NCBI GenBank assembly: GCA_964507955.1
Contig: CAZDRR010000001.1
Span: forward strand, 344 to 64,343
Length of the DNA stretch: 64,000 bases
Direction: 5' to 3'
Source of the DNA: an uncultured Candidatus Saccharibacteria bacterium
GTDB taxonomy: Bacteria > Patescibacteriota > Minisyncoccia > Phycocordibacterales > JAACPR01
Of the stretch, positions 35,303 through 62,545 are shown one piece after another. The notes beneath the pieces are model-generated. The model was not told the DNA's origin. It ran no database searches and saw nothing but the letters and a program-made list of their open reading frames with translations. The position numbers and the translations under genes are program-made. Every line of letters starts with the position of its first letter. Position 1 is the stretch's first letter.

Positions 35303-36060
35303 TTCAATTCGGACAACATCTTTGTTAAAATTCTACATTCTTTTGTTGGAATGTCTTTAAACGATTTCCATTGAGAGCAATCATCATTACGATATTTATT
35401 CTCTTTCCAAAGAGTTCTCAACCATTGGATAAATTGATCGAAATTTAAATTCTTTTCTTCTGCTGTTTTTTCAAGAAGCGCCCAAGGTTTTAAAATAACA
35501 TTTTCTTCTTCCGTTTGAGAACTTTCTGATCCAGAAGAACGCATGATTTCATCTGCCCCGACAATATGGATATTTAAAAAATTGCGCACGGCACGGACAA
35601 AAGCCCTATTACAAGCCATGGTTTCTAAAAATTTTTGACCAAAATCATCTGTATTTTTTACAGATGCATTTGCGCAATCCGAAAATTTTACAACATAAGG
35701 TGTTTCATAATTCGGAATCCATGTAATTGTGCAGGTAGCTATAGCATTTTCTGTATTACCAGAAATATTATATGAGACTTCGGAAAATCCCCTTAATTTA
35801 GCTAACTCTTTAATACCCCCGAGCATTATTAATAATTGTTTGTCTTTTAAGCCTTCAATAGAAGAAGGAATTGGCTTTTGTCTGTTTTCAAACCATTCCT
35901 TATTCACATAAAGGAATTCTGGTTTGATCATTTCTCTCCAATTAATTGATCCATCTTCATTAAAGACGTATGCAACATTAGGATAAAGTCCTGTAGAAGT
36001 ATTACGAGAATATTTTTGAACAGCTTGCTCTACAAGCGTTGCGGGGATTTCTTCACTCAT
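35299..36060 (-). CDS. hypothetical protein
   Basis: 253 aa; terminal gene of minus-strand operon; start overlaps the stop of the upstream gene (CATCAT at 36053..36060). Confidence 0.4.
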   Translation of the reverse strand: MSEEIPATLVEQAVQKYSRNTSTGLYPNVAYVFNEDGSINWREMIKPEFLYVNKEWFENRQKPIPSSIEGLKDKQLLIMLGGIKELAKLRGFSEVSYNISGNTENAIATCTITWIPNYETPYVVKFSDCANASVKNTDDFGQKFLETMACNRAFVRAVRNFLNIHIVGADEIMRSSGSESSQTEEENVILKPWALLEKTAEEKNLNFDQFIQWLRTLWKENKYRNDDCSQWKSFKDIPTKECRILTKMLSELN

Positions 36061-37186
36061 GATTGTTACTATAAATATACATCCAGTCTAAGTCAAGTAA
36101 AAACAAGTCCATAGACTTGTAAACTGCGAATATATTTGGATAAACGTCCGCGCCACAAACAATTTTTTTATTAGATATAATCGAAATATCTTCGTAAGAA
36201 GCGTTATTGATTTTTTGTCGATTGTCTTCTATCGTTTTTTCAACATTAAAATTAATAATGGCGTTATTGAAAAACTTAGCTCTTTCGTTTTTTAAATTTT
36301 CCTCGTTTGTGCAAATTAAATTAACTGGAATACCAAGTAATTTTAAATCTTCCACAAATTTCTTATCGAAAGATCCTGAAACATAATTGACACATAGAAG
36401 ATTTTTAACGAAAGGAAAGTTTAAGTTAAATGGTTGCGCCGTAGTTACTTCTCCAGTATTGCGCGAAAGAATATCTACCATTATTTTATGAGTTTCCATA
36501 TCACAAAATAAATCAAGTCTAATATTGACATTTTTTAAAACTAATGGACAGGGTAAAGATGGAATAATATCTATACATTTATCTTTATATCTCAAACCAG
36601 CATAAATCGTTTTAAATGGAATGTTATTGTTAAATCCAAGCATCTCAAGAATAGTTTGAGCAATAATTTCGGGATTTATTTTGTTGATTTTTTTAGGGAA
36701 TTCATTTAATATAAAAGATGGATTTTCATCTTTTTCGCGAGGAGTTTCGATAAGAAATTGTTTCTTTTTATCTCCCCAATATGGTGCCGAACAATTCGCA
36801 AAAGATTCCCCGAAAATAGCCGTAATTGGTTTGTTATAAACACTCGCAATTTGTGCTGCCAAAGAATCTACTCCAACAAATGCCATGCTGTTCTTAATGA
36901 CATTTGATGTTTGTCTAAAATTTAACTTGCCTCTTAAATCCAAATCACATTGCACGGATGGGTCTTTTAGAGAACCAATTTGAACAACCTTTATATTTTC
37001 ACGTTGCAAAAATGGCAAACAGAGATTCAAAACTAAATTCCAATGGTCATAATCTCTTAAATTGTTTTTTTTAGAAGCGTAAAAACAAATATATTTATCA
37101 AAAACTATAGGATAGTAATGTTCCAAAATTTCTATGGAAGAAATTGGAACGCCTGTCGATAATGCATATCTCTCAATTAAATGCAT
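36053..37186 (-). CDS. GT9 (heptosyltransferase-like) C-terminal domain protein with about 230-aa extension
   Basis: N-terminal 150 aa carry GT9 C-domain motifs (YASKKNNLRDYDHW ~ GASxxxKRWP; GVDSLAAQIASVYNKPITAIFG ~ GNDSGPMHLAAALGxPxVALFG); no GT9 N-domain present in this ORF. Confidence 0.55.
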   Translation of the reverse strand: MHLIERYALSTGVPISSIEILEHYYPIVFDKYICFYASKKNNLRDYDHWNLVLNLCLPFLQRENIKVVQIGSLKDPSVQCDLDLRGKLNFRQTSNVIKNSMAFVGVDSLAAQIASVYNKPITAIFGESFANCSAPYWGDKKKQFLIETPREKDENPSFILNEFPKKINKINPEIIAQTILEMLGFNNNIPFKTIYAGLRYKDKCIDIIPSLPCPLVLKNVNIRLDLFCDMETHKIMVDILSRNTGEVTTAQPFNLNFPFVKNLLCVNYVSGSFDKKFVEDLKLLGIPVNLICTNEENLKNERAKFFNNAIINFNVEKTIEDNRQKINNASYEDISIISNKKIVCGADVYPNIFAVYKSMDLFLLDLDWMYIYSNNHE

Positions 37187-37190
37187 GTTC

Positions 37191-38897
37191 TTATTCTTTA
37201 ATGTTCAAAGTAATGATATCGTTGCCATGATGCAAGTAATCCAAATGTTTTTGAGTCCCAATATGAGGCAGAAAACAAATTTCGAAATATCCTTTATGAG
37301 ATCCTTGTCCTTCCATCATGAATAAATTTTCCATATGAGGATGAAAATCAAGCACTTTATAGATGAACCTATTGCCTAAAAGAATTTCTTTGAATTGGGG
37401 CTTTGTAGCGAAATAAATGTCTTTATCTGGATAAGCCTTTTTGATTGATGGCAGCAAAGCTGTAGATAAAAAGACATCTTCTTCGGATTCTGGCATCACG
37501 AACAAAATACGATCTTTCCTTTCTTTATCTAAAAATGAATCAAAAGGAATCACTTTTAATTCTTCGGAAGGCTTGGCATTTTTGAAACTTATTATGGGTT
37601 GCTTTACTGTTTCGAGAATTTTTCCTTTTAGATTCTCAACAATTTTCTCAACGCTAAATTCTGCTTCTATCCATTTCTTGCCATTATCAACTAATTCTTG
37701 TTTTCTCTCTTGATCCAATCCATAAACATACAACAATGTATTACATATCGAATTAGCGTCGGTAGAAGCTTTGATGAATTGGGATTGGGGTTCTCTATAT
37801 TCATGCCATTTTAAAGGAAGTCCCCCTTGATGCTCATAGCACGAATCTGTGCCACAAGAGTATTCTGTAACCAATGTAATTAAGCCTGCGGCTTTAGCTT
37901 CTTGAATTGGTAATTCTTGCCCTCCAGAAGTAAATGGATGACAATATACGTCCATACAATTATAAACTTCATTTAATTGTTCCTCGGTTAATCCAGCAAT
38001 CGCTGTTTTTGTTTTAAAGGTTTTGGCCGAATTGCAGAATGGGCAATTAATTTCCGCACCTTCAAAATTTTTAATAGAATATCGTCCGCAAGAACTACAA
38101 CGATAAGTTGCTAAAACATCATGCGGACTAATCTTCTTTTCTTTTAAATATCGAACGATATCCCAGCCAGCTTGATTATCTCCCCAATCCGTATGCAAAA
38201 TTAGTTTAGCTTCTGGAACTATTTGTTTGAATAATTTAAATCCATCTAGGAGATTTGGAACAGATTTTCTCAATTGATTTTTGAAAACAAAACCTATGAC
38301 AAAATTTTTATCAAGGCCGTGTCTTTGGCGAATTTCGCGTCTATTTTCAAGAGGTTTAAAATGATTTAAATCAATAGCCCCATGTATTGTTGAAATATTA
38401 TGAATGCCAAATTTTTTCATTTCCTGTGTGGCGAAATCAGCCCAAACAAGAAATTTGTCGCAAGACTTCGCCATAATCATAGATTCTTCCATCAATGGAA
38501 GGCTGTCTAACGTTGTCCAAATGATTTTATGGGTAGTGTTCCACCAAGGCTTTGCAACGAAGCCAGAGAAGGCCCAAATGTCTTCAATGCCTACGTAAAC
38601 ATCTGGTTTTACAATATCAATAATCTTGTCTATTTCGTAATAGCCATATGATGCAGCGCGGTTTTTAAACGGATCGTTTGCAATTGAAGCCAATACTTCT
38701 GGATTCTCTGTCATAGTTCCATAACAAGGCCAAGGAGTCTTAACATCCCTACCAAATGGAACGCCATTCGCTGCTTCATAAACCTCAATATCTGGATCAT
38801 TATGCAATGCGAGAAGAACATTCTTCATGTTCTTCCCGAATCCAGTAACCATTCTACTGTAATTAGAATGAAAAAGAACTTTGATTTTCTTGTTCAT
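37191..38897 (-). CDS. GT4-type glycosyltransferase with inserted zinc ribbon and C-terminal GT9 N-domain-like module
   Basis: GT-B C-domain E-x7-E region GGQELPIQEAKAAGLITL; inserted CSSCGRYS...CPFCNS; C-terminal 150 aa (ILFVMPESEEDVFLSTALLPSIKKAYPDKDIYF...) resemble the N-terminal domain of WaaC/WaaF-type GT9 enzymes. Confidence 0.6.
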   Translation of the reverse strand: MNKKIKVLFHSNYSRMVTGFGKNMKNVLLALHNDPDIEVYEAANGVPFGRDVKTPWPCYGTMTENPEVLASIANDPFKNRAASYGYYEIDKIIDIVKPDVYVGIEDIWAFSGFVAKPWWNTTHKIIWTTLDSLPLMEESMIMAKSCDKFLVWADFATQEMKKFGIHNISTIHGAIDLNHFKPLENRREIRQRHGLDKNFVIGFVFKNQLRKSVPNLLDGFKLFKQIVPEAKLILHTDWGDNQAGWDIVRYLKEKKISPHDVLATYRCSSCGRYSIKNFEGAEINCPFCNSAKTFKTKTAIAGLTEEQLNEVYNCMDVYCHPFTSGGQELPIQEAKAAGLITLVTEYSCGTDSCYEHQGGLPLKWHEYREPQSQFIKASTDANSICNTLLYVYGLDQERKQELVDNGKKWIEAEFSVEKIVENLKGKILETVKQPIISFKNAKPSEELKVIPFDSFLDKERKDRILFVMPESEEDVFLSTALLPSIKKAYPDKDIYFATKPQFKEILLGNRFIYKVLDFHPHMENLFMMEGQGSHKGYFEICFLPHIGTQKHLDYLHHGNDIITLNIKE

Positions 38898-39523
38898 TAA
38901 AATGGAACATCGTCGTCAACATCATTGTCATCTACTTCTTCCGATTGGGAATTTTTGGAATTGGAAGATTGATTGTCTAAACCGAAATCATCATCATTTT
39001 GATTCTTATCGTTTTGTTTATTGTCAGGACGGAATTCTTCCTTCGCAGCATATAAAACTTGGGCAATAAATTCTTTTAAAAGAACGGCTAAAACTTCCGT
39101 TTCTCCAGCTTCTAAAGCAATCTTGAATGTCAATGCGGAATTTTTAACAATAGAAAGGCCAAAAGCATCAGAATCATAAGTCAAATTCTCATCTTTACCT
39201 TTGATTGTTCTTGGCTTATCCCAAGGAGTAAATTTGATAGAAGTTGAATCGTCGTTATTCTTATGGAAGGTAGCATAAGGAATTCTCGTCTTTAGAGATG
39301 ACAGTAATTCTCCAGCTTCATTCGCATTTAACTTGATTGTAATTGATTTTTTAGGGTTCTTAGCATTTTCTTTAAAAGACCCTGTTTTTGAGTTATCATT
39401 CCAACTGCTTTGGAGGACTGCGGAAACGAATAAAGCTACTCCTCCATCTCGGAGAGTGCCGATTTCAAAGCTCATTGCGCAACCATTATTTTTTGAGTTC
39501 GGTTTATAAAGAGTGTATTTCAT
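38897..39523 (-). CDS. ssDNA-binding protein candidate with bacterial-SSB-like acidic tail (DDDVPF)
   Basis: C-terminus ...EEVDDNDVDDDVPF closely mimics the E. coli SSB tail tip DDDIPF; long acidic/Asn-Gln linker before it; start placed at MKYTLYKP (alternatives 39475 or 39640). Confidence 0.45.
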   Translation of the reverse strand: MKYTLYKPNSKNNGCAMSFEIGTLRDGGVALFVSAVLQSSWNDNSKTGSFKENAKNPKKSITIKLNANEAGELLSSLKTRIPYATFHKNNDDSTSIKFTPWDKPRTIKGKDENLTYDSDAFGLSIVKNSALTFKIALEAGETEVLAVLLKEFIAQVLYAAKEEFRPDNKQNDKNQNDDDFGLDNQSSNSKNSQSEEVDDNDVDDDVPF

Positions 39524-39562
39524 TTTGAAATAAGTGTAATTTCTTCTGACATATTGTAAAAG

Positions 39563-41116
39563 ATGTATTCCAAAATTCAACCCCAACAAATCAATTTGCA
39601 TACATTTTCCAGCCCAAGCGGACATTTTACGATTTCGCAAGGTTCCGATTATGTTTATCTTGATTTAAACAAGTATTTAACTGGAGATTTTAATTTTACA
39701 GGAAATATTTTAATTAATGGATCTCCTATTTTTACATCGGATACCACTAATGTCGTTGATCATTCTGATAATTTAATTTTATTGGGATCAAATAATACAG
39801 CCAATGGAACAGGAAACGTCATTGTAAATTCTATTTCAACAACAATTCATGGAACGAATAATCTTGTTTTAAATTCTTTTCCTGCTGGAACTTTTGACCA
39901 AAGCGTTACAAAATGCACAATTTTAGCAGGAACTTATGCTGGATTTAATAATAGTATTTCTGGATCAACTATTTTAAAAGATCAATCCAATTCAACATCT
40001 TGCACCGCTACAAAAAATAATGCTCTTTATGTTTCTTTTGTTGGAGGGAGTTATTTTGATGGCAATGTTAATTTTAGTAATTCTGTTTCTCTGGAAGATT
40101 TTGCCGATTTAAAATTAGCATCACAAAGTTCGGGCCTCTTTTCTGGAGATATTAATGTTTTAGGTAATATCTATTGGAAAAATACTTTAATTCCTTCTAT
40201 TAGTGATGTTACAGGAATTAGCGGAAGCTTACAGACTCAAATTACCAATTCTGGAGCTTTGTTAACAAGCGATTTAGACGCCTTAGAATTTCTTGTTACT
40301 GGAACATCTACAAATCTAAGTGGCAAAAGTGTTTTTACAACAGGCGATCAAACAATTTCTGGAATTAAAACTTTTTATAATGATATCCTTTTATCTTCTT
40401 CTTCTTTAATTGGAGATACGGGAATAAGTAACTTTATTCAATTTGCGGATAAAAACGTCGTTAATTCTTCTGGTGATTTGCTCAAAATAGTTTCAAAAGA
40501 CTCTTGCGCTATTTTAATTGATTCTAATGATACTAAGTCTGGAGATTCAAATTTCTTTAATGGAGATACTTCTTTCAATAATTCTTTTGTTATTGGTAAG
40601 GGATTTGATGATTTGGATGGGGCAGATCCTTTAATGGCAGTAGATTACTATGGCAATTTAGTTGTTACTGGAAATTTAATCTTAAAAAATAGTGCGGGAT
40701 TAGTGCCTACTGGAGATTCTGACGCTATAGGAACTCATGGAGCTTTTGTTCAAAAAAATCAATATCTTTACATTAAAAATAACAATACTTGGATGAGATT
40801 CTCTGGAATCAGCACTTGGGATAATTCTAATCCAGATATCATCGCAGCGGGTTATCAAATTGTGCCAAATAATGGAACTGCCAATAGTCATGGATTTTTC
40901 CGCTCAAATGGCACTACACCAAGTTCTTCTGGACTTGATCTTGCCAGCGGCATATATACGGCAACCGTTATTTCTCCACCAGTATTAATTGCATGGTCCT
41001 ACACAACCTCAGATGCGCAATGGCCAAGTTATGCGGAGTGTTCAATAAGCACTCATACTATCAGAACAACTTATGATTTGGAAAATGAAGCCTTTTATGT
41101 AAAGGTTATTTCTTAA
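39563..41116 (+). CDS. beta-helix tail fibre/tailspike-like protein
   Basis: 517 aa; Asn/Gly/Ser/Thr-rich short repeats typical of right-handed beta-helix receptor-binding or depolymerase proteins; lone + gene; start overlaps divergent neighbour, so one start is miscalled. Confidence 0.45.
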   Translation: MYSKIQPQQINLHTFSSPSGHFTISQGSDYVYLDLNKYLTGDFNFTGNILINGSPIFTSDTTNVVDHSDNLILLGSNNTANGTGNVIVNSISTTIHGTNNLVLNSFPAGTFDQSVTKCTILAGTYAGFNNSISGSTILKDQSNSTSCTATKNNALYVSFVGGSYFDGNVNFSNSVSLEDFADLKLASQSSGLFSGDINVLGNIYWKNTLIPSISDVTGISGSLQTQITNSGALLTSDLDALEFLVTGTSTNLSGKSVFTTGDQTISGIKTFYNDILLSSSSLIGDTGISNFIQFADKNVVNSSGDLLKIVSKDSCAILIDSNDTKSGDSNFFNGDTSFNNSFVIGKGFDDLDGADPLMAVDYYGNLVVTGNLILKNSAGLVPTGDSDAIGTHGAFVQKNQYLYIKNNNTWMRFSGISTWDNSNPDIIAAGYQIVPNNGTANSHGFFRSNGTTPSSSGLDLASGIYTATVISPPVLIAWSYTTSDAQWPSYAECSISTHTIRTTYDLENEAFYVKVIS

Positions 41117-41490
41117 AATTCAATAATTGCAGATTTTGTCTCAATTTTCTTTGGCGTATCTTTTAAGTGCTTTTTACCCTTATTTTTCTTCTTATAATCG
41201 TCAAAGAATTTACGTTTAACAGGATCTTCTCCAGTTGCAGATGCCCGTTTTTCAGAAAGTTCGGCAGATAAATCCATCATATCTCCAACAGTTCCTTTTT
41301 TGGAACCTGTTTTATTTACGAAATCTTTTGCAGAATGAGGATCAATAGTTGTATCTATTGAGGCATTTGGAATAGTAAAAATTCTTTTCCACGCAATACC
41401 ATCTTGGTAATACTCATGTTTGTCATTCATGCCTTGGAGAATTTCTTTGATTTCTCCAGTTTCTTCATTCTGGTAAAGGTAAAGTGGCAT
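41113..41490 (-). CDS. hypothetical basic protein
   Basis: 125 aa; Lys-rich C-terminus. Confidence 0.4.
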   Translation of the reverse strand: MPLYLYQNEETGEIKEILQGMNDKHEYYQDGIAWKRIFTIPNASIDTTIDPHSAKDFVNKTGSKKGTVGDMMDLSAELSEKRASATGEDPVKRKFFDDYKKKNKGKKHLKDTPKKIETKSAIIEF

Positions 41491-42569
41491 TATAGCATCT
41501 TTGTTAAAATTTGATCAACTGTATTTTTATAAGTAAATTGTTTCCCCATTATCAATCCGTTTGTATTGACGGTTTTGGCTTTTAATACCGCTCTTTCCAT
41601 ACCATCAATCAAAGAATCTTCGCTAAGAAGAAAGTAATTGCCCTGATTAAAAGGAAGACCTTTTCTGAAAAAGAAATTATCGTAGCACGGTTGTTCTCCG
41701 ACAGGCTCAACAAGAATTGAATTATCTTCTGTAGCCCAATCTTTATGAGAAGAACAATTAGAAACTACCGACCATTTTCCTAAAGCCGTCGTATTAAATG
41801 CCCCCATATTCCAACCCTCTCCATTCGAAAAACCAGATAAATCAATATCTATAGCGTTCATCAATTCAAGAACTTCGGAATTTGTATCGAGCGATGGAAG
41901 AAAATTGATATTTGTCCACTCTTTATCCCCAAGGGTTTCTTGTAAAATTTGTTTGTATTGTTCTGGAGTAAAAAAGGGATTATTGACAAGGCAAGTTAAT
42001 AAATATTTTGGGTCGTTGCCATATTTTTTCAACCAAGTTTGGATAATTTGTCGAGTATTTTTCCTGCGTTCAAATTTTCCAATTAATCCAAAATGTATAA
42101 CGTCATCGTTAAACTTTTTATCAATTACATGAAAGTCTTCGTCAAATCCTAAAGGAACATGGGAAACATTATCGCAGCCAGCATTTTTAAAGATATTTGC
42201 GGCAATGGAACTTGAAAAGAAAACATGTTCTTGACTTTTCACTAAAGCGATTTCTTCTTGGGTTGGAGAAGAAACTTCGTAATATGTATAAAGAAATTGT
42301 TTTGGAGCAATTCTGTTTTCAGAACCATTGATATGCCAATTTTTAAGAACAGGATACTTTTTGTCCAACGTTTTGAATCTATTCTGTCCAGATTCCTTAA
42401 TCCAATCAATGAATTCTTTTGGAGCTTTGTCGAAGGCTTGGAAATTAGCCTGATCGCCTACGGGGAAAAGGGAAACTTCGGCATTTCTTTTCCAAAGTTC
42501 CTTTAAAAAATTCATTGATACATTCCCTAAACTCAAGGAATTGATGGGGCCATTAAAGTGAAGTTTCAT
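41490..42569 (-). CDS. GT-B glycosyltransferase (GT1/GT4-like)
   Basis: HFGLIGKFERRKN and SGFSNGEGWNMGAFNTTALGKWSVVSN resemble GT-B C-domain sugar-donor binding motifs. Confidence 0.55.
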   Translation of the reverse strand: MKLHFNGPINSLSLGNVSMNFLKELWKRNAEVSLFPVGDQANFQAFDKAPKEFIDWIKESGQNRFKTLDKKYPVLKNWHINGSENRIAPKQFLYTYYEVSSPTQEEIALVKSQEHVFFSSSIAANIFKNAGCDNVSHVPLGFDEDFHVIDKKFNDDVIHFGLIGKFERRKNTRQIIQTWLKKYGNDPKYLLTCLVNNPFFTPEQYKQILQETLGDKEWTNINFLPSLDTNSEVLELMNAIDIDLSGFSNGEGWNMGAFNTTALGKWSVVSNCSSHKDWATEDNSILVEPVGEQPCYDNFFFRKGLPFNQGNYFLLSEDSLIDGMERAVLKAKTVNTNGLIMGKQFTYKNTVDQILTKML

Positions 42570-50263: not shown

Positions 50264-50265
50264 CA

Positions 50266-52879: not shown

Positions 52880-53210
52880 ATTTTCTAAAGAAAGAAAAAT
52901 TTTCATTCAGAGAATGCTTCAAGGCCGTCCAAAGAATTTCGCTTTGGAAATGAAAACGGCTTATGAGCTTTTCGAAATGCACGAATTTGACTTGAATTTT
53001 TTCGAGAAAGTTTCTCCTCCTCCATTTAAAATCAATAGCCTTTTATGGTTTAAAACCAGAGATGGTTTAAAGTTCTTGGCTAAGAAAAAAATGGAAATGA
53101 AGTTCCAAGTGCCTGAATATGAAAAAGTTGTTGAAATTGGGGAGAAATGCGGAGAAGATACATTGACTGAAATCAAACCACGAACAATCAGAAAATTTTT
53201 AAATGGCTAG
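52860..53210 (+). CDS. hypothetical protein
   Basis: 116-aa ORF. Confidence 0.4.
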   Translation: MPKPIRKFSKERKIFIQRMLQGRPKNFALEMKTAYELFEMHEFDLNFFEKVSPPPFKINSLLWFKTRDGLKFLAKKKMEMKFQVPEYEKVVEIGEKCGEDTLTEIKPRTIRKFLNG

Positions 53211-54363
53211 AACAAAAAATAATCCAACAACTCCAGAACAAGATAAAAAAGAAAAGCCTGATGATCAAGCTTTTGCTTCGTCTTTCTTTAATTCTAATAA
53301 AGAATTCCACTATAATCTTGTGGAAGAAGCGGAAGATTTTACCGTATCAAGCGGCTCATTAAAATTTGACTATATTCTTTCTGGAGGTTTTAAAAAAGGA
53401 CTATTCCGTTTTACAGGCGTAACAGAAGGCGGCAAAACTTCATGTGCTTTGACAGTTTTGAAAAACATGCTGGATACCGTTCCTAATTCCAAAGGGATTT
53501 ATGTCAAGGCGGAAGGACGTTTGCGTAAAGAGATTCAGGAGAGATCTGGTATTAAATTTGTTTTCTCTCCCGAAGAATGGGAAGTAGGAACTTGTCTTGT
53601 TTTCGAATGTAATGTTTTCGAAACAGTATTTGATTTTTTTAGGGGTTTGTTAAAAAATAATCCTAAGAAAATTCGTTTCGGTTTTATTGTTGATTCTGCT
53701 GATGGATTAATTCCAAAAGGCGATTTGGAAAAATCTTCGGAAGAGGCTGGGAAAGTTGCGGGTGGAGCTTTATTAAGTTCTGACTTCTTCAAGAGAGTTT
53801 CTTTGGGAATGTCTAAATTCGGGCATTTAGGAATCTTTTTATCTCAAGTTCGGGCTAGAGTCGAAGTGAATCAATACGCTCCAAAAGATCAAAACAACAG
53901 GACTTCTGCGAGTGGCGGCAACGCCCATTTGCATTATCCAGATTGGATTATCGAATTCAAGAGACCGAATAAGGACGACTTTATTGCAAAAAATCCAGAA
54001 GCACCTTTATCTTTAGATAATCCTCCTATTGGTCATAAGGCAAAAATTCTTATCTGCAAATCTCCTAATGAAACTACTGGTATGATTTTGGATTATCCAA
54101 TCAAACATGGTAGAACTGGAGGTCGTTCTGTTTGGATCGAAAGAGAAATTATTGATCTATTATTAATGTGGGAATTTTTCACTAAGAAAGGATCATGGTA
54201 TTCTTTTGACGAAGAGATTCAAGCTCACTGTCAAGAATTCGGTTATGATTTGTCGAACGCCATTCAAGGTATTCCAAACTTATACAAACTCTTGGAAGAA
54301 GACGCAAAATTAGCAGAAATTTTGAAGAACTTTGTAAAAGTTAACTGTTTAGTAATGAAATGA
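53203..54363 (+). CDS. RecA/UvsX-family recombinase
   Basis: Walker A GVTEGGKTS, Walker B FIVDSADGL, GGNAHLHY region comparable to RecA GGNALKFY. Confidence 0.75.
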   Translation: MARTKNNPTTPEQDKKEKPDDQAFASSFFNSNKEFHYNLVEEAEDFTVSSGSLKFDYILSGGFKKGLFRFTGVTEGGKTSCALTVLKNMLDTVPNSKGIYVKAEGRLRKEIQERSGIKFVFSPEEWEVGTCLVFECNVFETVFDFFRGLLKNNPKKIRFGFIVDSADGLIPKGDLEKSSEEAGKVAGGALLSSDFFKRVSLGMSKFGHLGIFLSQVRARVEVNQYAPKDQNNRTSASGGNAHLHYPDWIIEFKRPNKDDFIAKNPEAPLSLDNPPIGHKAKILICKSPNETTGMILDYPIKHGRTGGRSVWIEREIIDLLLMWEFFTKKGSWYSFDEEIQAHCQEFGYDLSNAIQGIPNLYKLLEEDAKLAEILKNFVKVNCLVMK

Positions 54364-54773
54364 TTTTTAAATCAGCAACATCTAATAAAAATGTTAAACT
54401 CAGAAATGCCACTCGATATTTAATAAAATGGAATGGTAAATGTAGGAGTAAAATACAAGCCAAGGTAAAGGACAAACTTTACCCATTTTGGTTTGCAGAT
54501 ATCGTTTTTGAAGAGTTGCCAGTTGTAGGAACCCGATTGACGTTAGATTTTTATAACGCTAATAAGCAAATTGCTATTGAAGTAGATGGTTCCCAGCATT
54601 ATAAATTCAATAAATTTTTCCACAATAACTCCCGTATAAAATTTTTAAATCAACTTGAGAGAGACGATATCAAAGAAAAATTCTGTGAGAAAAACAATAT
54701 CAAGCTTGTTAGAATTTTGGATACAGATGTGCTTGACAAAGAGCTATTTAGGAAGTTAGGATTAATCAAATGA
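54360..54773 (+). CDS. DUF559/Vsr-like PD-(D/E)xK endonuclease domain protein
   Basis: LDFYNANKQIAIEVDGSQHY...ERDDIKEKFCEKNNIKLVRI matches the DUF559 pattern; inserted between recA-like and dnaB-like genes. Confidence 0.55.
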   Translation: MIFKSATSNKNVKLRNATRYLIKWNGKCRSKIQAKVKDKLYPFWFADIVFEELPVVGTRLTLDFYNANKQIAIEVDGSQHYKFNKFFHNNSRIKFLNQLERDDIKEKFCEKNNIKLVRILDTDVLDKELFRKLGLIK

Positions 54774-54988
54774 AGGCAACAAATAATATTCCAGAAACCT
54801 TATTAAGTAAGGTCTTTGACGCAACAGGCTCCGCTTCTGGCGGCAATAGAGGTTATATTATTGCCATGGTTAATTCCAATGGAGACCCGACAATCATTTC
54901 TCGATTTGAAAATTCTTGTGTGAGCCTTGCTTTGAGAAAAGCCCTTGAATTATTTGTTGACACAGATAATCAACAATTAAACCAATGA
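54770..54988 (+). CDS. hypothetical small protein
   Basis: 72-aa coupled ORF. Confidence 0.35.
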   Translation: MKATNNIPETLLSKVFDATGSASGGNRGYIIAMVNSNGDPTIISRFENSCVSLALRKALELFVDTDNQQLNQ

Positions 54989-56541
54989 TTTATTCTTACG
55001 AGTTGGAAAAAAAAGTGCTGTCTGGTATTTTACAGCACCAACATAAATGGGCGGAAATATCCCTTTTTTTAAAGGAGTCGGATTTTTATTCTGACGATTC
55101 TAAAGTAAACGTTTCCATTTTTCGTTTGTTAAAAAATGCATTGGATAATAAAGAAGTTGTTGATGAAACGATTTTAACACAAAGAATTCAACAATTAAAA
55201 GTTAGTTTTCCAGATTGTATTGATATCGGAGAATATATCTATTCTTTGGCGTTTTATAAAATTTCGGAAGATGTTTTTATTTCATCAATCAAAGAACTCA
55301 AAAAGTTTTCTGCCCGAAGAGGAATCTACATTGCTGCTAAAGACGTAGCTTCTTTTGTCAAAAAAACAGATCCAAATTTATCCTATTCTTCTATTGTCGA
55401 ACAGGCGGATAAATTATACAACGACGCAATTCAAAAATTTGAGTCTTTAGATTCTGGCCCCATTAATTTGTTTGAAGTAATGGAGGAAATGATTGAAGAA
55501 CGCGGGAATAATCCTATACAAGAGTTTGGATTAATGGGTCCTCATCCACGCATTAATCAAATTTATGGCTCTTTGCTTAGAGGAGGGAATATTACGGTTA
55601 TTGTAGCTCGTTCTGGAGTGGGCAAGAGTCAATTTGCGATGGATTTTTCTACCAAAGTTGCAGCGATGAATAACGATATTCCCGTGCTTCATTTGGATAA
55701 CGGAGAAATGAGCGAAGAAGAGCTTATTTTCCGTCAGATGGCCGCTATGACAGGTTTACCCGTTCACTTGTTCGAAACAGGTTTATGGCGCTCTTGCACA
55801 TACAAAGACATGTCTTCTAGGGAAATTGTTGACTTAGTTCGTCATACATTTTCAAAGATTAAAAACATGAAGTTCTTTTACGTTAATGTCGCGGGCATGA
55901 CGGTTGAGGAAATGGTAGCTTTGACAAAGAGATTTTACTTTTCCAAGGTTGGACGCGGGAACAAAATGATTCTCAGTTTCGACTATATTAAGAGTGATTT
56001 TAGCAATATAGGTAAAGCAGACGGATGGCAACAAGTAGCCTTTATGGTTAATAAATTTAAACAATGTATCCATCGGGAACTTTGTTTTGATGGTGATCGT
56101 CCCGTGGCTATGATTACATCCGTTCAGTCAAATAGGCTGGGTATTACGACGAATAGGGCTGCTGAAAATATTGTTGACGATGAAAGCGTTGTTAGTTTAT
56201 CAGATGCTATTACTCAATTTTGTTCTCATTTGTTTTTGTTGCGCAAAAAAGTAATGGAGGAGATTCAGGAGGAGGGAACAAAGTTTGGCACCCATAAATT
56301 TATCAATTTAAAATCTAGGCATTTGGGCAAAGACCCAATGAGGGCTATTAATCCCGTCACGATGCCTGATGGTTCTAAAAAGAACAATTATATCAATCTG
56401 GATTTCAATAACTTTTCTATTACAGAGAAAGGCGATCTTGTTGATTGGGTTGAAACAATGAATGGTGGAGGCTCAACAGAATTGGAGACTTTTGATGCGG
56501 AATTTGTTGATGATATTCCAGAATTATTAACTAATGGTTGA
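54985..56541 (+). CDS. DnaB-like replicative helicase
   Basis: DnaB-type N-terminal domain; RecA-fold ATPase with Walker A VIVARSGVGKSQ and Walker B LHLDNGEM. Confidence 0.75.
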   Translation: MIYSYELEKKVLSGILQHQHKWAEISLFLKESDFYSDDSKVNVSIFRLLKNALDNKEVVDETILTQRIQQLKVSFPDCIDIGEYIYSLAFYKISEDVFISSIKELKKFSARRGIYIAAKDVASFVKKTDPNLSYSSIVEQADKLYNDAIQKFESLDSGPINLFEVMEEMIEERGNNPIQEFGLMGPHPRINQIYGSLLRGGNITVIVARSGVGKSQFAMDFSTKVAAMNNDIPVLHLDNGEMSEEELIFRQMAAMTGLPVHLFETGLWRSCTYKDMSSREIVDLVRHTFSKIKNMKFFYVNVAGMTVEEMVALTKRFYFSKVGRGNKMILSFDYIKSDFSNIGKADGWQQVAFMVNKFKQCIHRELCFDGDRPVAMITSVQSNRLGITTNRAAENIVDDESVVSLSDAITQFCSHLFLLRKKVMEEIQEEGTKFGTHKFINLKSRHLGKDPMRAINPVTMPDGSKKNNYINLDFNNFSITEKGDLVDWVETMNGGGSTELETFDAEFVDDIPELLTNG

Positions 56542-57586
56542 TTATAGAAATATTTTAGAGAATTTGGGCTACAAGCTAATAGATCGAGGATCATATTGGC
56601 ATACAGCCGCTATTTTTCGTAATGGAGATAATCCAACAGCAATTCAAATTTATAAAGATACTGGAGTATGGCGAGATTTTGTAGAAGATTCTCCTTTTGC
56701 TCCATTTGAGGCTTTGGTAAAAAAAACTTTAAATACGAATGATTCATCGCTCATTAAAAGCATATTAAATAATAATAGCAACGATATAGAAGCCGTTTCC
56801 TCGAAAAAAAAATTATTGAAAGAAGAGCGCGTTTTCGAAAGTTCTTGTTTGAAAAGACTATTGCCACATTACGACTTTTATACTTCTCCAGAGAGAAATA
56901 TTTCAATCCAAACGCTTGAAGATTATCAATGCGGATTGGCTACTTCTGGTAAATTTTATCAAAGATTAGTTTTTCCTATTTTCAGATATGACGGCAAAAT
57001 ACATGGGTTCTCTGGTAGAAAAATTCTCGAAAGCAACAACAAAAGCAAGTGGTTTCATTCTGGCAAAGTTGCTAATTGGGTATATCCAACTTACACCACT
57101 CCTTTTACAAGTTCGGCTATTTTAAATAAGAAAAGAGTATTTCTTGTAGAATCCATTGGAGATTCGTTGGCGATGTATGATAAAGGAATTCAAGAAAATC
57201 TTGTTTCTTTTGGTTTATCTATTTCTCCAAAATTAGCTGCTCATTTAGGATCATTAGAAGTTGAGAAGATTGTTTTCGCATTCAATAACGATTTTGAAGC
57301 AGAAAAAAATAGGGGTGTAATCGCCGCTGTTAAAAATATCATCAAACTTTCTAGTCACTTGGATTTCACAAAAATTTATATATGTCCTCCTCATAAAAGT
57401 GATTTTGGCAAAATGACGGATCAAAAAGATTTTGAACTTTATCTAAAATATTTTGATAATATGACTCACGAAGAGTCTATGCGCAAAGTAGTCGATCAGG
57501 CGGAAGCGTTAGGAAATAATGTTTCTGACGATTTTAAAATATTAAGAAGAAAGTTCAACAAACTCTATTCATTCCATTATGAATAA
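56534..57586 (+). CDS. DnaG-like primase (Toprim) with degenerate zinc-binding domain
   Basis: Toprim-like FLVESIGDSLAMYDKG; N-terminus follows the DnaG zinc-domain pattern but with SYWH...TGVW replacing CxxH...CxxC. Confidence 0.5.
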   Translation: MVDYRNILENLGYKLIDRGSYWHTAAIFRNGDNPTAIQIYKDTGVWRDFVEDSPFAPFEALVKKTLNTNDSSLIKSILNNNSNDIEAVSSKKKLLKEERVFESSCLKRLLPHYDFYTSPERNISIQTLEDYQCGLATSGKFYQRLVFPIFRYDGKIHGFSGRKILESNNKSKWFHSGKVANWVYPTYTTPFTSSAILNKKRVFLVESIGDSLAMYDKGIQENLVSFGLSISPKLAAHLGSLEVEKIVFAFNNDFEAEKNRGVIAAVKNIIKLSSHLDFTKIYICPPHKSDFGKMTDQKDFELYLKYFDNMTHEESMRKVVDQAEALGNNVSDDFKILRRKFNKLYSFHYE

Positions 57587-58619
57587 ACCATTATCAGCTT
57601 CCAGAATCAAAGTCTTACAAACTTGCTCTTATTTATATTGGGCGAAGTATCATTTAAAACTTCCCGATAAGGCTAACGAGGGTAGTTTGAGAGGCAACAT
57701 TTGTCATACTGTTTTTGAAGTTCTTGGCGATCCTCGCCATAGGAAACATTATGATGCAATTGTCTCTTTGCAAGATGTTGCTGCTTCACAAGCAATAGAG
57801 AGATTGATTTTGTCTTATGCCAAAAAGAATGGCATAGATTCTTTCGAGAATTTGGATTTAATCAACAAGATGATCTTGGAAGGATTGAATTATGATTTTT
57901 TTGGAACCAAAAATGGGAAACCCACATATGGATTAAGCGAATGCGATTTCGATATTGATGTGAATACTGATAAGAAAAATTATCGCATTTTGGGTTTCAT
58001 AGATAAATTGTTCTTGTTCAAAAAGAAAAAACTAGCAATTATTCGTGACTTTAAAACATCAAAGGGAATTTTTTCTGGAGAAGAAGTCGAGGATAATTTG
58101 CAAAATTTAATGTATTGCCTTGCAGTAAAATACTTGTATCCAGAATATTTACAGAGAAAAATGGAATTTCTGTTTTTGAAATTTGATTTGAATAACGGAG
58201 GCTTGCTGGAAATGGCAGAGGTTTCAACAGATGAATTGGAAGGTTTCGAAATTTTCTTGACTCAGGTTCAAAAAGTTATCAATAATTTCAACGAAAAAGC
58301 CGCATTGGCAGATATGGCGTATCACAAAGGCTTTGGACAAGGATTTACTGGAAGGACAGTATGCGGACAAGGAATGAACCCAAATGCTCTTAAAAAGGAT
58401 GGAACGCCCATGTGGGCATGTGCGGCAAAATGGCCTTTCGACTATTATGTATTATTGGATGAAAAGAAAACTGTGATAGGCTCTTCGTTAGATAAAATTG
58501 ATTTGGAGCAAAAACAAACAAAGTATCCAAATTCTAAAATTGAAAAACGCAAATATGAAGGATGCCCAGCTTGGAACGTAAAGAAGAAAATTCTTGACAA
58601 ATACGATCCATTTTTATAA
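57579..58619 (+). CDS. Cas4/RecB-family PD-(D/E)xK exonuclease with Fe-S cysteine set
   Basis: IIRDFKTSK and QNLMYC (QxxxY) nuclease motifs; one N-terminal Cys plus three C-terminal Cys. Confidence 0.55.
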   Translation: MNKPLSASRIKVLQTCSYLYWAKYHLKLPDKANEGSLRGNICHTVFEVLGDPRHRKHYDAIVSLQDVAASQAIERLILSYAKKNGIDSFENLDLINKMILEGLNYDFFGTKNGKPTYGLSECDFDIDVNTDKKNYRILGFIDKLFLFKKKKLAIIRDFKTSKGIFSGEEVEDNLQNLMYCLAVKYLYPEYLQRKMEFLFLKFDLNNGGLLEMAEVSTDELEGFEIFLTQVQKVINNFNEKAALADMAYHKGFGQGFTGRTVCGQGMNPNALKKDGTPMWACAAKWPFDYYVLLDEKKTVIGSSLDKIDLEQKQTKYPNSKIEKRKYEGCPAWNVKKKILDKYDPFL

Positions 58620-59316
58620 AAAAAGAATAGTGATTCCATTATTTAAAACTCATTACAGCGTTGGAAAGAGTATTTTAACTCCTTCTAATATTTTTTCATT
58701 TATAGATGATTCTCCGCAGGTTGTTTTTGTTGAGGATAGTTTTTGTGGTTTCCGTAATATTTTCAATGAGGCTACGAAACATAAAAAGCAATTGATTTTT
58801 GGAATTCGGCTACCAGTTATCCAAAATTCTTTGGAAGAACGTCCGAGTAAACTTGTTTTTTTTGCAAAAAACGATGAAGGAGTTGGGGATTGCAAACAAC
58901 TTTTTTCAAAAACTTATTGTTCTGATGAAAAAGTTTTAAAATTAGGGGATTTAAAACCCAAGAATCTTAAAAACATCAAAATAGGAGTGCCTTTTTATGA
59001 CTCTTATGTTTACAATAACGTATTTTATTTTGGGTTGTCGGAATTGCATTTGAAAAAATTTGATCATTTTTACTTTGAAGAAAGCAACAATCATCCTTTT
59101 GATTTTCAAATTTCGAATGCCCTAAAAGAAGTTTCAGAAGAAACAGTCTTGGCGAAAACAATCTTGTATAAGAATTACGATGATTTTGATGCCTTTACAA
59201 TGTATAAGGCAATTTGTAATAGAGGTCACGGGAAATCGCCAACGCATTCAGCGCCGAATATCAATCATCTATGTTCCAACGAATTTTGCTGGGAATCTTT
59301 CAAATTAAATAAATGA
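58594..59316 (+). CDS. degenerate PHP-domain protein (detached N-terminal domain of Pol III alpha)
   Basis: LFKTHYSVGKSIL, FVEDSFCGFRNIFNEATKHKKQLIFGIRL and LVFFAKNDEGVGDCKQLFS parallel DnaE PHP-domain segments but lack the metal-ligand histidines. Confidence 0.45.
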   Translation: MTNTIHFYKKRIVIPLFKTHYSVGKSILTPSNIFSFIDDSPQVVFVEDSFCGFRNIFNEATKHKKQLIFGIRLPVIQNSLEERPSKLVFFAKNDEGVGDCKQLFSKTYCSDEKVLKLGDLKPKNLKNIKIGVPFYDSYVYNNVFYFGLSELHLKKFDHFYFEESNNHPFDFQISNALKEVSEETVLAKTILYKNYDDFDAFTMYKAICNRGHGKSPTHSAPNINHLCSNEFCWESFKLNK

Positions 59317-59978
59317 GCTTACCATTTGACCAAAAATACATAACCTTTGATACAGAAACAGAAGGCTTGAATTTACATAATTCTCGTCCATGGCAATTGG
59401 CGTGGAATCGAGCAAAAGGAAACAAGTCTCTTAATGCAGAAAATAGATTTTTATATTGGTCTGATTTAAAAGTATCAAGAGACGCGGCGAGGATCACAGG
59501 ATTTGATATAGATTTTTATGAAAATATTGGCAGGGATAATCATAAATACAAAATTTTTGGCAAGGAGTTTAAAGCGGAAAATCCAGAGGTCGTTTTAAAC
59601 GATTTTGAAAAAGAGTTGTATGATCCCAAGAACATTATTGTTGGGCAAAACTTATTAGGATACGACGTTTATATTATTGCCACTTTACAACGTATTTGTG
59701 GCAAAAAACAGGATTTCTCTTATTTATCCCGCATTTATGATACGAGACCGCTGGGTATGGCTTATAGAGAAGGATTGACAAAACCAAAGAATTGCGACAT
59801 GCTTTCTTGGCAATATAAAATATTAAATGACGCATCTTTGAAAGCAAAAGTTTCACAACTCGCACAATTGAAATTTTTAGGCATTGAATTTGATGAAACG
59901 AAACTTCATGATGCCTTATATGATAATGAAATGTGCTTCCAAATTTTTCAAGCACATAAAAAGAATTTAAGCCTATGA
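59313..59978 (+). CDS. DnaQ-like DEDDh 3'-5' proofreading exonuclease
   Basis: Exo I FDTETEG, Exo II GQNLLGYDV, Exo III HDALYDNEM; ATGA-coupled to both neighbours. Confidence 0.8.
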   Translation: MSLPFDQKYITFDTETEGLNLHNSRPWQLAWNRAKGNKSLNAENRFLYWSDLKVSRDAARITGFDIDFYENIGRDNHKYKIFGKEFKAENPEVVLNDFEKELYDPKNIIVGQNLLGYDVYIIATLQRICGKKQDFSYLSRIYDTRPLGMAYREGLTKPKNCDMLSWQYKILNDASLKAKVSQLAQLKFLGIEFDETKLHDALYDNEMCFQIFQAHKKNLSL

Positions 59979-62545
59979 TTTTTCATGATGTAAAACCATA
60001 TGTCGAACCAGAGCCAGTAGGCGTCGAACTACCTAAAATTTTTGTTACAGAACAAGAATTAAAAGAAATTGACGACAAACTTACCGTCAACAGCAGCAGT
60101 TTTGATCTTTTGAAGTCGCTGGTCAGAAAGGGATTGAAAGACAAGGGAATTGTTAATCGAGACGATAAACAAACATATTTTGATAGGGCAAAACAAGAAC
60201 TGGATACTTTCGAAGAATTGGGATTCACAGACTATGTTCTTTTAAATTGGGACATTTTGAATTTTTGTCATAAGAACAATATCCCTACAGGCGCGGGCAG
60301 AGGTTCTGCGGCAGGCAGTTTAGTTCTTTTTTTATTAGGGGTTACAAATATAGATCCGCTTGAACATAATTTATTCTTCGAAAGATTCGTTTCCAAATCC
60401 CGTGCGAAGAAAATCCTTTCCAAATCAGGAAAACAATTTCTTGTTGGAAGCTTGTTACCCGACGTTGATTCAGACATTTCATATGATCAACGCTCCAAAG
60501 TTATCGCTTATATTGAGGAAAAACACAGAGGAAAGACTTCTAAAATTTTGACCTTTAATACTTTCAGTTCCAAACTTTGCATTAGAGAAACAGCGAAGTA
60601 TTTTTGTGAAGCTTCTGAATTTGAAGCCAGTGAAGTTAGCGACATGATTCCGAAATTACACGGAGTCGTTGCTGATTTGGAAGATGCATATGAAGAAGTT
60701 GAATCTTTTAAAAATTGGGCAAACCGTTATCCAGACGCTTATAAAAATGCTTTAAAAATAGAGAACTTGAATAAAAATACGGGAGTTCATCCTTCTGGAA
60801 TTGCTATTTGCTCCGATACAATTTCGAATATTATTCCTCTTCAAAAAACAAAGGATGGAGATTTGGTGTCGGGTTATGATATGAATGGAGTATCGGATTT
60901 GATGGTTAAATTCGATATCTTGGGACTAAGAACACTTACTGTCGCCCAAAATACCTGTAATCGTCTAGGCATCTCTCTGGACGATATTCCATATAATGAT
61001 GAGTTCATTTATAAAGCGTTACAGGATTTCAAACATCCGATGGGATTATTCCAAATTTCTGCGGATACAAACTTTAGGGTAGCGCAAGCAATTAAGCCAA
61101 GCAACTTACAAGAATTGTCTGATGTTATCGCTCTTGCAAGGCCCGGAGCCTTGCAATTCCTTACAGACTATAAAGAGAACAAACAGACCTTAAAAGAACT
61201 TGGTATGCATGAAGAGTTAGATCATATTCTTTCATGGTCAAAGAATGTTATCTTATATCAGGAACAATTGATGATGATCGCCAACAAGGTTTTCGGATTC
61301 TCTTTAGAAGAAGCTGAAATCTTGAGAAGAATTGTTGGTAAGAAAAAACGTGATGAGATGCCCCCATGGAAAGAAAAAATTTATAATGCGGGCAAAGAAA
61401 GAGGATTGGATACAAAAATCAGCGATTTCTATTGGTCCGCTCTTGAAGCCTCTGCGGATTATTCTTTCAATTTAAGTCATAGCGTTAGTTATGCGACTTT
61501 GGCGGCGAAAACCGTATATTTGAAATACAAGTATCCTCAAGAATTCTTTATTTCTCTATTAGAATCTGCTGAATTCGAACCAGATCCATTAGCGGAAATT
61601 TCCCTTATCCAAAAAGAATTACAGGATTTTGGTATTAAACTTCTTCCACCTTCCCTTGAAGTATCCGATATGACATTTTCGGTTGAAAATGAAAATATTC
61701 GTTATGGATTAAGAACTATTAAAGGTATCTCCTCCAAGTCATTAGCTTCATTGGTTGATTTTCGAGGCAAGAAATTTGCAAATAAGTATGAAGTGTTTTC
61801 TGCGGCCAAGAATGCAGGTATCAACATTTCTGTTCTCGCGGCATTGATTCAGGCTGGAACAATGGATCAGTCTGGACAGAATAGAAGTCGCATGGTTCTG
61901 GAGGCACAAGCATTTAACCTTTTAACAGATAGGGAAAAGCGTAATTTTATGCTTATCGGAGAAAGATTTGGATTTGACCTGTTGAATACAATTGCTGATG
62001 TGGTGGACAAACAAATTATTGGAGACGATAATCGGGTGATTATGTCCAATAAAAGGTTGGAAACCTTCAAACGCGATTTCCAAAAATATCTGACAATTTA
62101 TCGCCAAAATCGCAAGTATGATAAATTTGCAAAATGGTGGTATGAGAACACATTATTAGGGTATAGTTATTCGATTCTTTTAAAAGATTGTTTTGTTGAT
62201 ACGTTTGGTGTTTTGGATAACATTAAGGATTTGGAAGAAGCTGACGATAGATCGACATTTAAAGTTGCTGGTCAAGTTGAAGATTTCTTTGTTAAAACGA
62301 GCGCGGCTGGAAATAAATATATGTCCATTCTTCTTTCAGACAATACAGCGACCCAAAAATTTCTTTTTATGGATAATCGCAGGGCAGCTAAATTAACAGA
62401 ATTTTTAGAGTTTAATAAACTGATCAAAAAGGATATAATCGTATTGACAGGGACAAAAAGTTCGGATAGCTTATTTGTGAATTCTATAGAAAAAATAGAC
62501 TGTTCAATTTACATGAAACCGAAAGATATCAAAGATGAATCTTGA
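59975..62545 (+). CDS. dnaE: DNA polymerase III alpha catalytic core (lacking PHP domain)
   Basis: GAGRGSAAGSLV, PDVDSDI catalytic aspartates, FERF, C-terminal OB-fold; begins where DnaE thumb/palm starts. Confidence 0.85.
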   Translation: MIFHDVKPYVEPEPVGVELPKIFVTEQELKEIDDKLTVNSSSFDLLKSLVRKGLKDKGIVNRDDKQTYFDRAKQELDTFEELGFTDYVLLNWDILNFCHKNNIPTGAGRGSAAGSLVLFLLGVTNIDPLEHNLFFERFVSKSRAKKILSKSGKQFLVGSLLPDVDSDISYDQRSKVIAYIEEKHRGKTSKILTFNTFSSKLCIRETAKYFCEASEFEASEVSDMIPKLHGVVADLEDAYEEVESFKNWANRYPDAYKNALKIENLNKNTGVHPSGIAICSDTISNIIPLQKTKDGDLVSGYDMNGVSDLMVKFDILGLRTLTVAQNTCNRLGISLDDIPYNDEFIYKALQDFKHPMGLFQISADTNFRVAQAIKPSNLQELSDVIALARPGALQFLTDYKENKQTLKELGMHEELDHILSWSKNVILYQEQLMMIANKVFGFSLEEAEILRRIVGKKKRDEMPPWKEKIYNAGKERGLDTKISDFYWSALEASADYSFNLSHSVSYATLAAKTVYLKYKYPQEFFISLLESAEFEPDPLAEISLIQKELQDFGIKLLPPSLEVSDMTFSVENENIRYGLRTIKGISSKSLASLVDFRGKKFANKYEVFSAAKNAGINISVLAALIQAGTMDQSGQNRSRMVLEAQAFNLLTDREKRNFMLIGERFGFDLLNTIADVVDKQIIGDDNRVIMSNKRLETFKRDFQKYLTIYRQNRKYDKFAKWWYENTLLGYSYSILLKDCFVDTFGVLDNIKDLEEADDRSTFKVAGQVEDFFVKTSAAGNKYMSILLSDNTATQKFLFMDNRRAAKLTEFLEFNKLIKKDIIVLTGTKSSDSLFVNSIEKIDCSIYMKPKDIKDES

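Follow-up and report, generated by a model that had tools for sequence, protein, structure and literature searches.

On the minus strand of the 64,000-nt stretch of contig CAZDRR010000001.1 analysed here (the window, a 64-kb piece whose own positions serve as coordinates throughout), a mechanical open reading frame (ORF) occupies 38897..39640, and its product ends ...SEEVDDNDVDDDVPF. The window has 35% G+C, contains 353 ORFs of at least 50 amino acids (aa) and is part of a large uncultivated marine phage genome; its TerL shares only ~25% identity with the terminases of SPbeta-like and Bacillus phages, and its DnaE is at most ~31% identical to any phage record. A first-pass annotation of this DNA had proposed the ORF as a non-canonical single-stranded DNA (ssDNA)-binding protein carrying a C-terminal tip like that of the bacterial ssDNA-binding protein, SSB, and had called its start codon ambiguous. 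We confirmed the ORF as called, and its product appears to combine a Whirly-type core with an SSB-type tail.

The ambiguity of the start was real, and comparison with homologues settled it. Judged by its relatives, the protein begins at ATG 39523 rather than at TTG 39640 or ATG 39475, because three lines of evidence agree: a database protein (P0001) is identical to the resulting 208-aa product; almost all of the 177 homologues, which are 180-210 aa long, have the N-terminus MK[YF]xLYKPNSKNxG; and independent gene calls on two short contigs chose the equivalent of ATG 39523 and kept the spacer of ~39 bp to the divergent gene. Extension to TTG 39640 is unconserved and overlaps that divergent gene, which encodes 517 aa and starts at 39563, while a start at ATG 39475 would remove the invariant residues Y6, K7, P8, N9 and G14. 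Positions 39524-39640, the 'N-terminal extension' of the mechanical ORF, are non-coding. At its other end the gene is joined to the next one, encoding 568 aa, by a TAATG junction in which the Whirly stop codon overlaps the ATG.

Structure prediction placed the core of this protein in the Whirly fold. A single-chain AlphaFold2 model built on a 46-sequence alignment had a mean pLDDT of 86, and of 92-98 over residues 1-160, with a predicted topology of β4-α, β4-α and a terminal 26-residue helix. The model contains the tandem β-β-β-β-α repeats and the two antiparallel sheets of the Whirly fold, and plant Whirly proteins accounted for each of its 14 best Foldseek matches (E 3.5e-6 to 8e-5). The listed structural matches included no OB-fold SSB, gp2.5 or gp32, and the BFVD viral structures gave weak matches to jumbo-phage and giant-virus proteins (TM <0.45). 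Two other identities for the core were considered and rejected, namely the canonical OB-fold SSB (PF00436) and a gp2.5-like protein: the OB fold was looked for and not found, a gp2.5-type OB fold was absent from the listed structural matches and no PHROG matched, so the protein does not belong to the SSB or gp2.5 family. The suggestion in the first-pass annotation of a gp2.5-like body therefore has to be dropped, but its broader claim of a non-OB candidate ssDNA-binding protein stands. The same annotation had made its claim depend on an OB fold or an ssDNA-binding homologue in the N-terminal domain; the former is absent, but the closest relatives in structure and sequence, those from plants, are genuine ssDNA-binding proteins of the Whirly family.

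Homology to Whirly proteins emerged from profiles and intermediate sequences. Searching PDB sequences with a profile of 111 diverse family members retrieved StWhy2 (E 9.2e-5) and AtWHY2 (E 2.1e-4); a PDB search with a profile of close homologues returned spurious PP5 matches only. Alignment of the family to four plant Whirly sequences with hhalign gave E 5.9e-5 at a probability of 65% and paired the family residues Q38xxW41, E69xG71, H87 and E141 with the plant invariants RQYDW, TEIG, FFHD and AEF. The Pfam Whirly model PF08536 was matched by 12 of the 111 family members, and its gathering score of 23 bits, below which the window protein falls, was passed by P0155, P0154 and P0192. P0155 scored 26.6 bits and covered positions 10-134 of the 136 in the model; it ends ...DSDVPF and P0154 ends ...DDGIPF, and the window-family profile retrieves both at about E 1e-33. 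Because fold match and profile homology agree, the protein is best classed, from model and alignment, as a divergent, remote member of the Whirly superfamily. Residues invariant in the family are Y6, K7, P8, N9, G14, Q38, W41, G48, S49, F50, N53, K59, E69, G71, E72, R80, P82, H87, P100, W101, D102, K103, G122, E138, G140 and E141. The KGKAAL motif is absent, and the equivalent β1-β2 region reads YKPNSKNNGCAMSF, with the hairpin YKPNSKNNG. A 16-residue insert specific to the family (residues ~42-57) carries the invariant G48, S49, F50 and N53.

The SSB of Escherichia coli ends ...DFDDDIPF, and DDDVPF in the window protein differs from DDDIPF by one conservative change. Among the 353 window ORFs, the combination of an acidic run and a PF end is unique to the Whirly ORF. 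The 44 residues from 165 to 208 include 12 D, 8 N, 5 S and 4 Q, residues ~166-208 are predicted to be disordered (AlphaFold2 pLDDT 46-53; 46-75 over the linker, residues 166-199), leaving a linker of ~35 residues, and the net charge is +4 for the core and -11 for the tail. Counted back from the C-terminus, 119 full-length homologues had F as the last residue in 118 cases and P as the penultimate one in 118; position -3 held V (94), A (18) or I (6), while Asp/Glu made up 61-85% of each position between -4 and -9. Further in, starting at -10, columns had an entropy of ~3 bits or more, which is near random. An xPF terminus was also present in 74 of 80 IMG/VR loci, and VPF/IPF-type tips are common to family members that are only ~30% identical in the core. 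The linker varies in length as well as sequence, most homologues having K/P/Q/E-rich linkers, and the N/Q-rich composition of the window protein is unconserved. Because PF is near-invariant and the acidic run is confined to -4..-9 while the linker is hypervariable, the tip is, on its conservation pattern, a motif under selection and not low-complexity noise. The proposal of a bacterial SSB-Ct-like motif behind a flexible linker, with a terminal [IV]PF shared by related phages, is thus clearly upheld. As far as alignment and model can tell, the protein follows the three-part plan of bacterial SSB, with a core, a disordered linker and an SSB-Ct-type tip.

We propose, with a probability of roughly 0.55, that the gene encodes the phage's own ssDNA-binding protein, with a Whirly fold in place of the OB fold and with a convergent bacterial SSB C-terminal hub. 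The protein would tetramerise like plant Whirly proteins, MRP1/2 and ChmC, and a tetramer would therefore display four tails. Its β-sheet faces would coat ssDNA at the replication fork and on recombination intermediates. Bacterial SSB is described as having, behind a disordered linker, a 9-residue acidic tip that recruits at least 17 partners (PMC7145534); the tip of the phage protein would similarly dock into basic and hydrophobic pockets on proteins that interact with SSB and so deliver partner enzymes to ssDNA. Possible partners are the phage DnaG-like primase, DnaE polymerase, UvsX-like recombinase and nuclease, or the partners of host SSB; phage-encoded partners are no less plausible than host partners, because the phage encodes its own DnaB/DnaG/DnaE/UvsX-type machinery. 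Without DNA the tip may fold back on the DNA-binding surface as an auto-inhibitory element, as in E. coli SSB and T7 gp2.5.

The distribution of replication genes bears on this proposal. The family co-occurs with a phage replisome of the DnaB/DnaG/DnaE type. The window yielded no second SSB-like ORF, and no SSB was found within 10 kb on either side of DnaE in 80 relatives or in the 10 kb past DnaE of a close relative. A ClpB-like double-AAA+ gene directly follows DnaE and runs off the window end, accounting for a stretch at 62.5-64 kb that had seemed free of ORFs, with 62553-63989 corresponding to residues 7-489 of a homologue in a close relative (L122). The DnaE-ClpB-like order is kept in distant clades, where the Whirly gene lies a few kb past exonuclease, DnaE and ClpB-like genes.

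Several observations weigh against a replicative ssDNA-binding role. The window protein by itself had no Pfam match at E <= 10, no PHROG match and no PDB match (phmmer); its homology to Whirly proteins rests on profiles and intermediate sequences, with an hhalign probability of only 65%. Proteins of the Whirly fold also bind RNA, as do MRP1/2 and phage ChmC, which prefers ssRNA (PMC11077065). What follows the Whirly gene in its operon is three glycosyltransferase-like genes, not replication genes, and the window in which other SSBs were sought covers less than half of a phage genome of ~139 kb. About 30% of the wider family is tail-less, so the tip is not essential to the function of the core. 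Finally, one sublineage (L071, L073 and L074; also L090-L092) carries a canonical 127-aa OB-fold SSB besides the Whirly protein, which is therefore not always the sole SSB. In L073 this gene, at 4265-4648 (-), is inserted between sigma-like and glycosyltransferase genes ~5 kb upstream of the Whirly gene; its product ends ...EFADIPF and the Whirly protein ...EDDAPF, giving one phage two ssDNA-binding-type folds, both xPF-tipped. A scan with the canonical SSB of L073 found matches confined to its small sublineage.

Exhaustive searching of 1.84 billion cluster representatives (50% identity) with a profile showed that the family is large and, to judge from where its members lie, essentially viral and not cellular. 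It comprises 660 clusters at E <= 1e-3, 408 of them at <= 1e-10, and at least 409 IMG/VR viral contigs of up to 206 kb encode a relative, compared with eight contigs in 185,579 species genomes, all from metagenome-assembled genomes (MAGs) of unrelated taxa. The closest two MAG contigs belong to Flavobacteriaceae and Flavobacteriales bins, a weak hint at the host. No family member carries an annotation, and none of the 111 representatives matched PHROGs. Searches of 50,697 GenBank phage records by tblastn with the window protein and three distant members, and of GenBank phage records by megablast with 20 kb of the window, found no match.

Tails differ within the family. The 111 representatives comprise 30 with xPF, 17 acidic-F, 11 acidic-W, 9 with NPF plus 1-3 residues, 32 tail-less and 12 other forms. 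Tip class tracks core similarity, the nearest neighbour having the same class in 70 of 111 cases against ~22 expected, yet switches between close relatives are still numerous. The Whirly homologues of seven loci (L064-L069, on contigs of 12-203 kb, and L079) end ...SEDPPF or ...DQDPPF; actinobacterial SSB tips end ..DEPPF, and this resemblance suggests that tip type may track host phylum.

The main rival role, which we regard as unlikely, is that of an RNA chaperone or condensate former like jumbo-phage ChmC: a Whirly tetramer would act on phage mRNAs, and its N/Q-rich linker and acidic end would tune condensation and limit non-specific binding, with no SSB hub. ChmC (PhiPA3 gp61, phiKZ gp67) is the sole characterised phage Whirly-fold protein that we found, and its report describes a homotetramer that binds ssRNA at 58 nM and ssDNA at 184 nM and has a disordered C-terminus that is N/G-rich and then S/D/E-rich (PMC11077065). 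Sequence similarity of the family to phiKZ ChmC was nevertheless absent (hhalign E 0.67), whereas similarity to plant ssDNA-binding Whirly proteins was detectable, and the jumbo-phage matches in BFVD were the weak ones noted above. The linker of the window protein is N/Q/D/S-rich, as the ChmC-like role would have it, but the N/Q richness is the part that is unconserved, and what is conserved, the terminal acidic xPF tip, is superfluous to a condensate model. A tubulin gene adjoins the Whirly gene in several relatives, yet tblastn with phiKZ gp54, gp55, gp68, gp71 and gp74 (E <= 1) found no match to chimallin or the phiKZ-type RNA polymerase in the window or in the loci of relatives.

We consider it improbable that the protein is a decoy or takeover factor in which the four tips of a tetramer titrate host SSB partners (such as RecQ, ExoI, PriA, chi and Ung) away from host SSB, shutting down host replication and repair or blunting defences, with ssDNA coating secondary. 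The tip does nearly copy the bacterial SSB-Ct consensus, but the replisome proteins of the phage itself would be natural partners for it. Tip type differs by clade (VPF, APF, IPF, PPF, acidic-F, acidic-W, NPF-x) and switches among close relatives, as expected if tips tracked the pockets of different hosts; the evidence as to host is limited to the two Flavobacteriales MAG contigs. In L073 a canonical phage SSB coexists and could free the Whirly protein for another task, but the nucleic-acid-binding core is conserved and many members are tail-less, and the core must therefore have a function of its own.

No better placed is a transcription co-factor or nucleoid-architectural protein like PBF-2/Whirly or PC4, which would bind melted promoters or compact DNA under the sigma-like factor. 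Whirly first became known as a transcription factor, and in plants Whirly proteins serve as nucleoid-architectural proteins (PMC9070903), but transcription factors are not known to make use of an SSB-Ct-type tip. A sigma-70-like gene lies ~3 kb from the Whirly gene and, with a small putative regulator, is co-conserved in 58-62 of 80 loci; this synteny, however, reflects the generally conserved gene order of one viral lineage, and in distant clades the neighbours are exonuclease, DnaE and ClpB genes and not the sigma-like gene. That the tail is simple low-complexity sequence resembling SSB-Ct by coincidence is suggested by its biased composition in the window protein (12 D and 8 N in 44 residues) but is effectively refuted by the conservation pattern, PF being kept in 118 of the 119 homologues although the linker is hypervariable, the acidic run being limited to -4..-9, and the same tip recurring on members ~30% identical in the core.

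Comparison with known systems sets the proposed phage ssDNA-binding protein apart from each of them. Like bacterial SSB (E. coli; PF00436), it has a disordered, variable linker and an acidic tip ending [IVL]-P-F, and by analogy it would be a probable tetramer with four tails; unlike SSB, its core is non-OB, with no sequence or structural similarity, and its linker is ~35 aa long compared with 56 aa in E. coli. The acidic C-terminal tails of T7 gp2.5 and T4 gp32 contact the phage replisome, and gp2.5 ends in Phe. An acidic tail with a terminal aromatic residue is shared with gp2.5, and ~15% of the wider family is acidic-F without Pro, but gp2.5 and gp32 are OB-fold proteins, and the likeness is a functional analogy only.

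Plant Whirly proteins (StWhy1/PBF-2 p24, StWhy2 and AtWHY1-3; PF08536) are only ~15% identical to the phage protein. In the latter YKPNxKNxG replaces KGKAAL, the β1-β2 loop is longer and the 16-residue insert (~42-57, GSF..N), absent from plants, is present; it is also phage-encoded and has a bacterial SSB-type linker and tip, no such tip having been found reported for plants. A 2022 review calls Whirly proteins plant-specific, describes KGKAAL as an ssDNA-binding and hexamerisation motif of higher plants only, and mentions a 'putative autoregulatory domain' for plant Whirly proteins (PMC9070903).

ChmC resembles the window protein in being a phage Whirly-fold protein with a disordered N-rich C-terminal region followed by an acidic end, which its report describes as an S/D/E-rich electronegative cluster (PMC11077065). 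It differs in having no detectable sequence relationship and in its reported β3-α repeats, its preference for RNA, its formation of condensates and its work at the phage nucleus, from which it promotes mRNA export (PMC11077065). The xPF end is absent from ChmC; phiKZ gp67 (L119, 12160-12900) ends ...NNSYNDSAFDEDMPSF (...FDEDMPSF), an acidic patch closed by Phe and reminiscent of the tails of SSB-Ct and gp2.5 type. MRP1/MRP2 of Trypanosoma brucei anneal guide RNA to mRNA, and the PC4-like protein of phage T5 (PC4-like/PUR superfamily) is a type II inter-molecular dimer domain; no SSB-Ct tip is reported for either. Neither a Whirly-type SSB in phages nor an SSB-Ct tip on any Whirly protein turned up in open-access papers and bioRxiv.

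A wider reading, which we hold to be doubtful, is that Whirly-fold proteins form a large and so far unrecognised group of replicative SSBs among uncultivated phages, most of them aquatic, with bacterial-type DnaE replisomes, that they acquired the hub independently, with swappable tips, and that they share ancestry with plant Whirly proteins. As part of the same reading, the organellar Whirly proteins of plants possibly descended from phage SSBs; a phage origin is accepted for other organellar replication proteins. If the role proposed here for the window protein is confirmed, a non-OB fold would join the short list of replicative SSB architectures, and the reinvention of a linker and acidic aromatic tip on an unrelated core would be strong evidence that the hub, and not the fold, is selected. 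It would also give a function to a dark-matter family of abundant ocean phages (the 660 clusters and at least 409 IMG/VR contigs described above, all 'hypothetical'), and the occurrence of different tips, or of none, on a single core would offer a natural system for learning how SSB tips specify partners. Detectable relatives in prokaryotic viruses would, moreover, make the origin of the organellar genome-maintenance family testable.

The Whirly gene lies in a minus-strand, early-type region, with genes for dUTPase, dNMP kinase, the sigma-70-like protein, a glycosyltransferase and the small regulator upstream and a ribonucleotide reductase gene also in the neighbourhood. The block formed by the Whirly gene and its three downstream genes is kept in 73-77 of the 80 IMG/VR loci (L010-L089), and also in distant clades (L003, L005 and L008). 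The 568- and 377-aa genes gave weak glycosyltransferase matches (GT-B, GT1/GT9), and the 253-aa protein gave none. Positions of the gene, its parts and the surrounding features are collected in the following table.

Table. The Whirly-fold gene, its parts and associated features of the window
Feature	Position	Strand	Remarks
Coding sequence of Whirly-fold protein with SSB-type tail	38897..39523	-	complete; 208 aa plus TAA stop at 38897-38899
Predicted Whirly core, residues 1-165	39029..39523	-	β4-α, β4-α, then long C-terminal helix 139-164
Predicted disordered linker, residues 166-199	38927..39028	-	Asn/Gln/Asp/Ser-rich; hypervariable in sequence and length among homologues
Acidic tip NDVDDDVPF, residues 200-208	38900..38926	-	terminal V-P-F; bacterial SSB-Ct architecture
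Divergent intergenic spacer, 39 bp	39524..39562	.	between Whirly start 39523 (-) and 517-aa gene start 39563 (+); spacing of ~40 bp also in relatives
Three downstream genes, 568, 377 and 253 aa	35299..38897	-	first coupled to Whirly gene via TAATG
Replication/recombination module	53203..62545	+	~14 kb from Whirly gene; bacterial-type; candidate tip partners
UvsX-like recombinase	53203-54363	+	
HNH/homing-endonuclease-like ORF, 137 aa	54360-54773	+	between UvsX-like and DnaB-like genes
DnaB-like helicase	54985-56541	+	
DnaG-like primase	56534-57586	+	
PD-(D/E)XK nuclease	57579-58619	+	
PHP, 240 aa	58594-59316	+	weak match
DnaQ-like exonuclease, 221 aa	59313-59978	+	
DnaE Pol III alpha, 856 aa	59975-62545	+	Pfam match begins at NTPase domain

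Within the module, the Pol III-type polymerase is apparently split over the overlapping PHP, DnaQ-like and DnaE ORFs (58594-62545). The weak sigma-70-like sites near the Whirly start, at 39580-39553 and 39560-39533 (-), came from a promoter scan that did no better than chance; a terminator scan of the window was at chance level, and Rfam and tRNA scans of it were empty.

The three genes downstream of the Whirly gene are better conserved than the Whirly gene itself, with up to 55% identity across clades, and the 568-aa protein contains a CxxC...CxxC insert. The divergent gene at 39563-41116 (+) breaks an otherwise co-directional minus-strand block; its 517-aa product is Ser/Thr/Asn/Gly-rich, has a weak BppL_N match and is probably a fibre or receptor-binding protein. 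A relative (L003) has a different gene, of 340 aa, in the same slot on the opposite strand, so that the slot looks like a variable cassette. Directly 3' of the Whirly gene, five related marine phage contigs carry a tubulin-family gene (PF00091, PhuZ/TubZ-like; L005 8188-9372, L006 8051-9235, L063, L075 and L077), and in a sixth (L046) the tubulin gene lies upstream instead.

Genes of sugar metabolism are unusually dense in the window, at 47004-52879 (+), 41490-42569 (-) and 36053-38897 (-). They include GT1- and GT2-type glycosyltransferases, a UDP-GlcNAc 2-epimerase, a polysaccharide-biosynthesis dehydratase/epimerase and a GDP-mannose 4,6-dehydratase, and further glycosyltransferase-like genes are interleaved with nucleotide-metabolism genes. 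A PhoH-like ATPase at 2859-3614 (+; E 1e-45) opens a plus-strand structural block, and a second sigma-70 region-4-like protein is encoded ~3 kb past DnaE in the close relative L122 (15892-16644).

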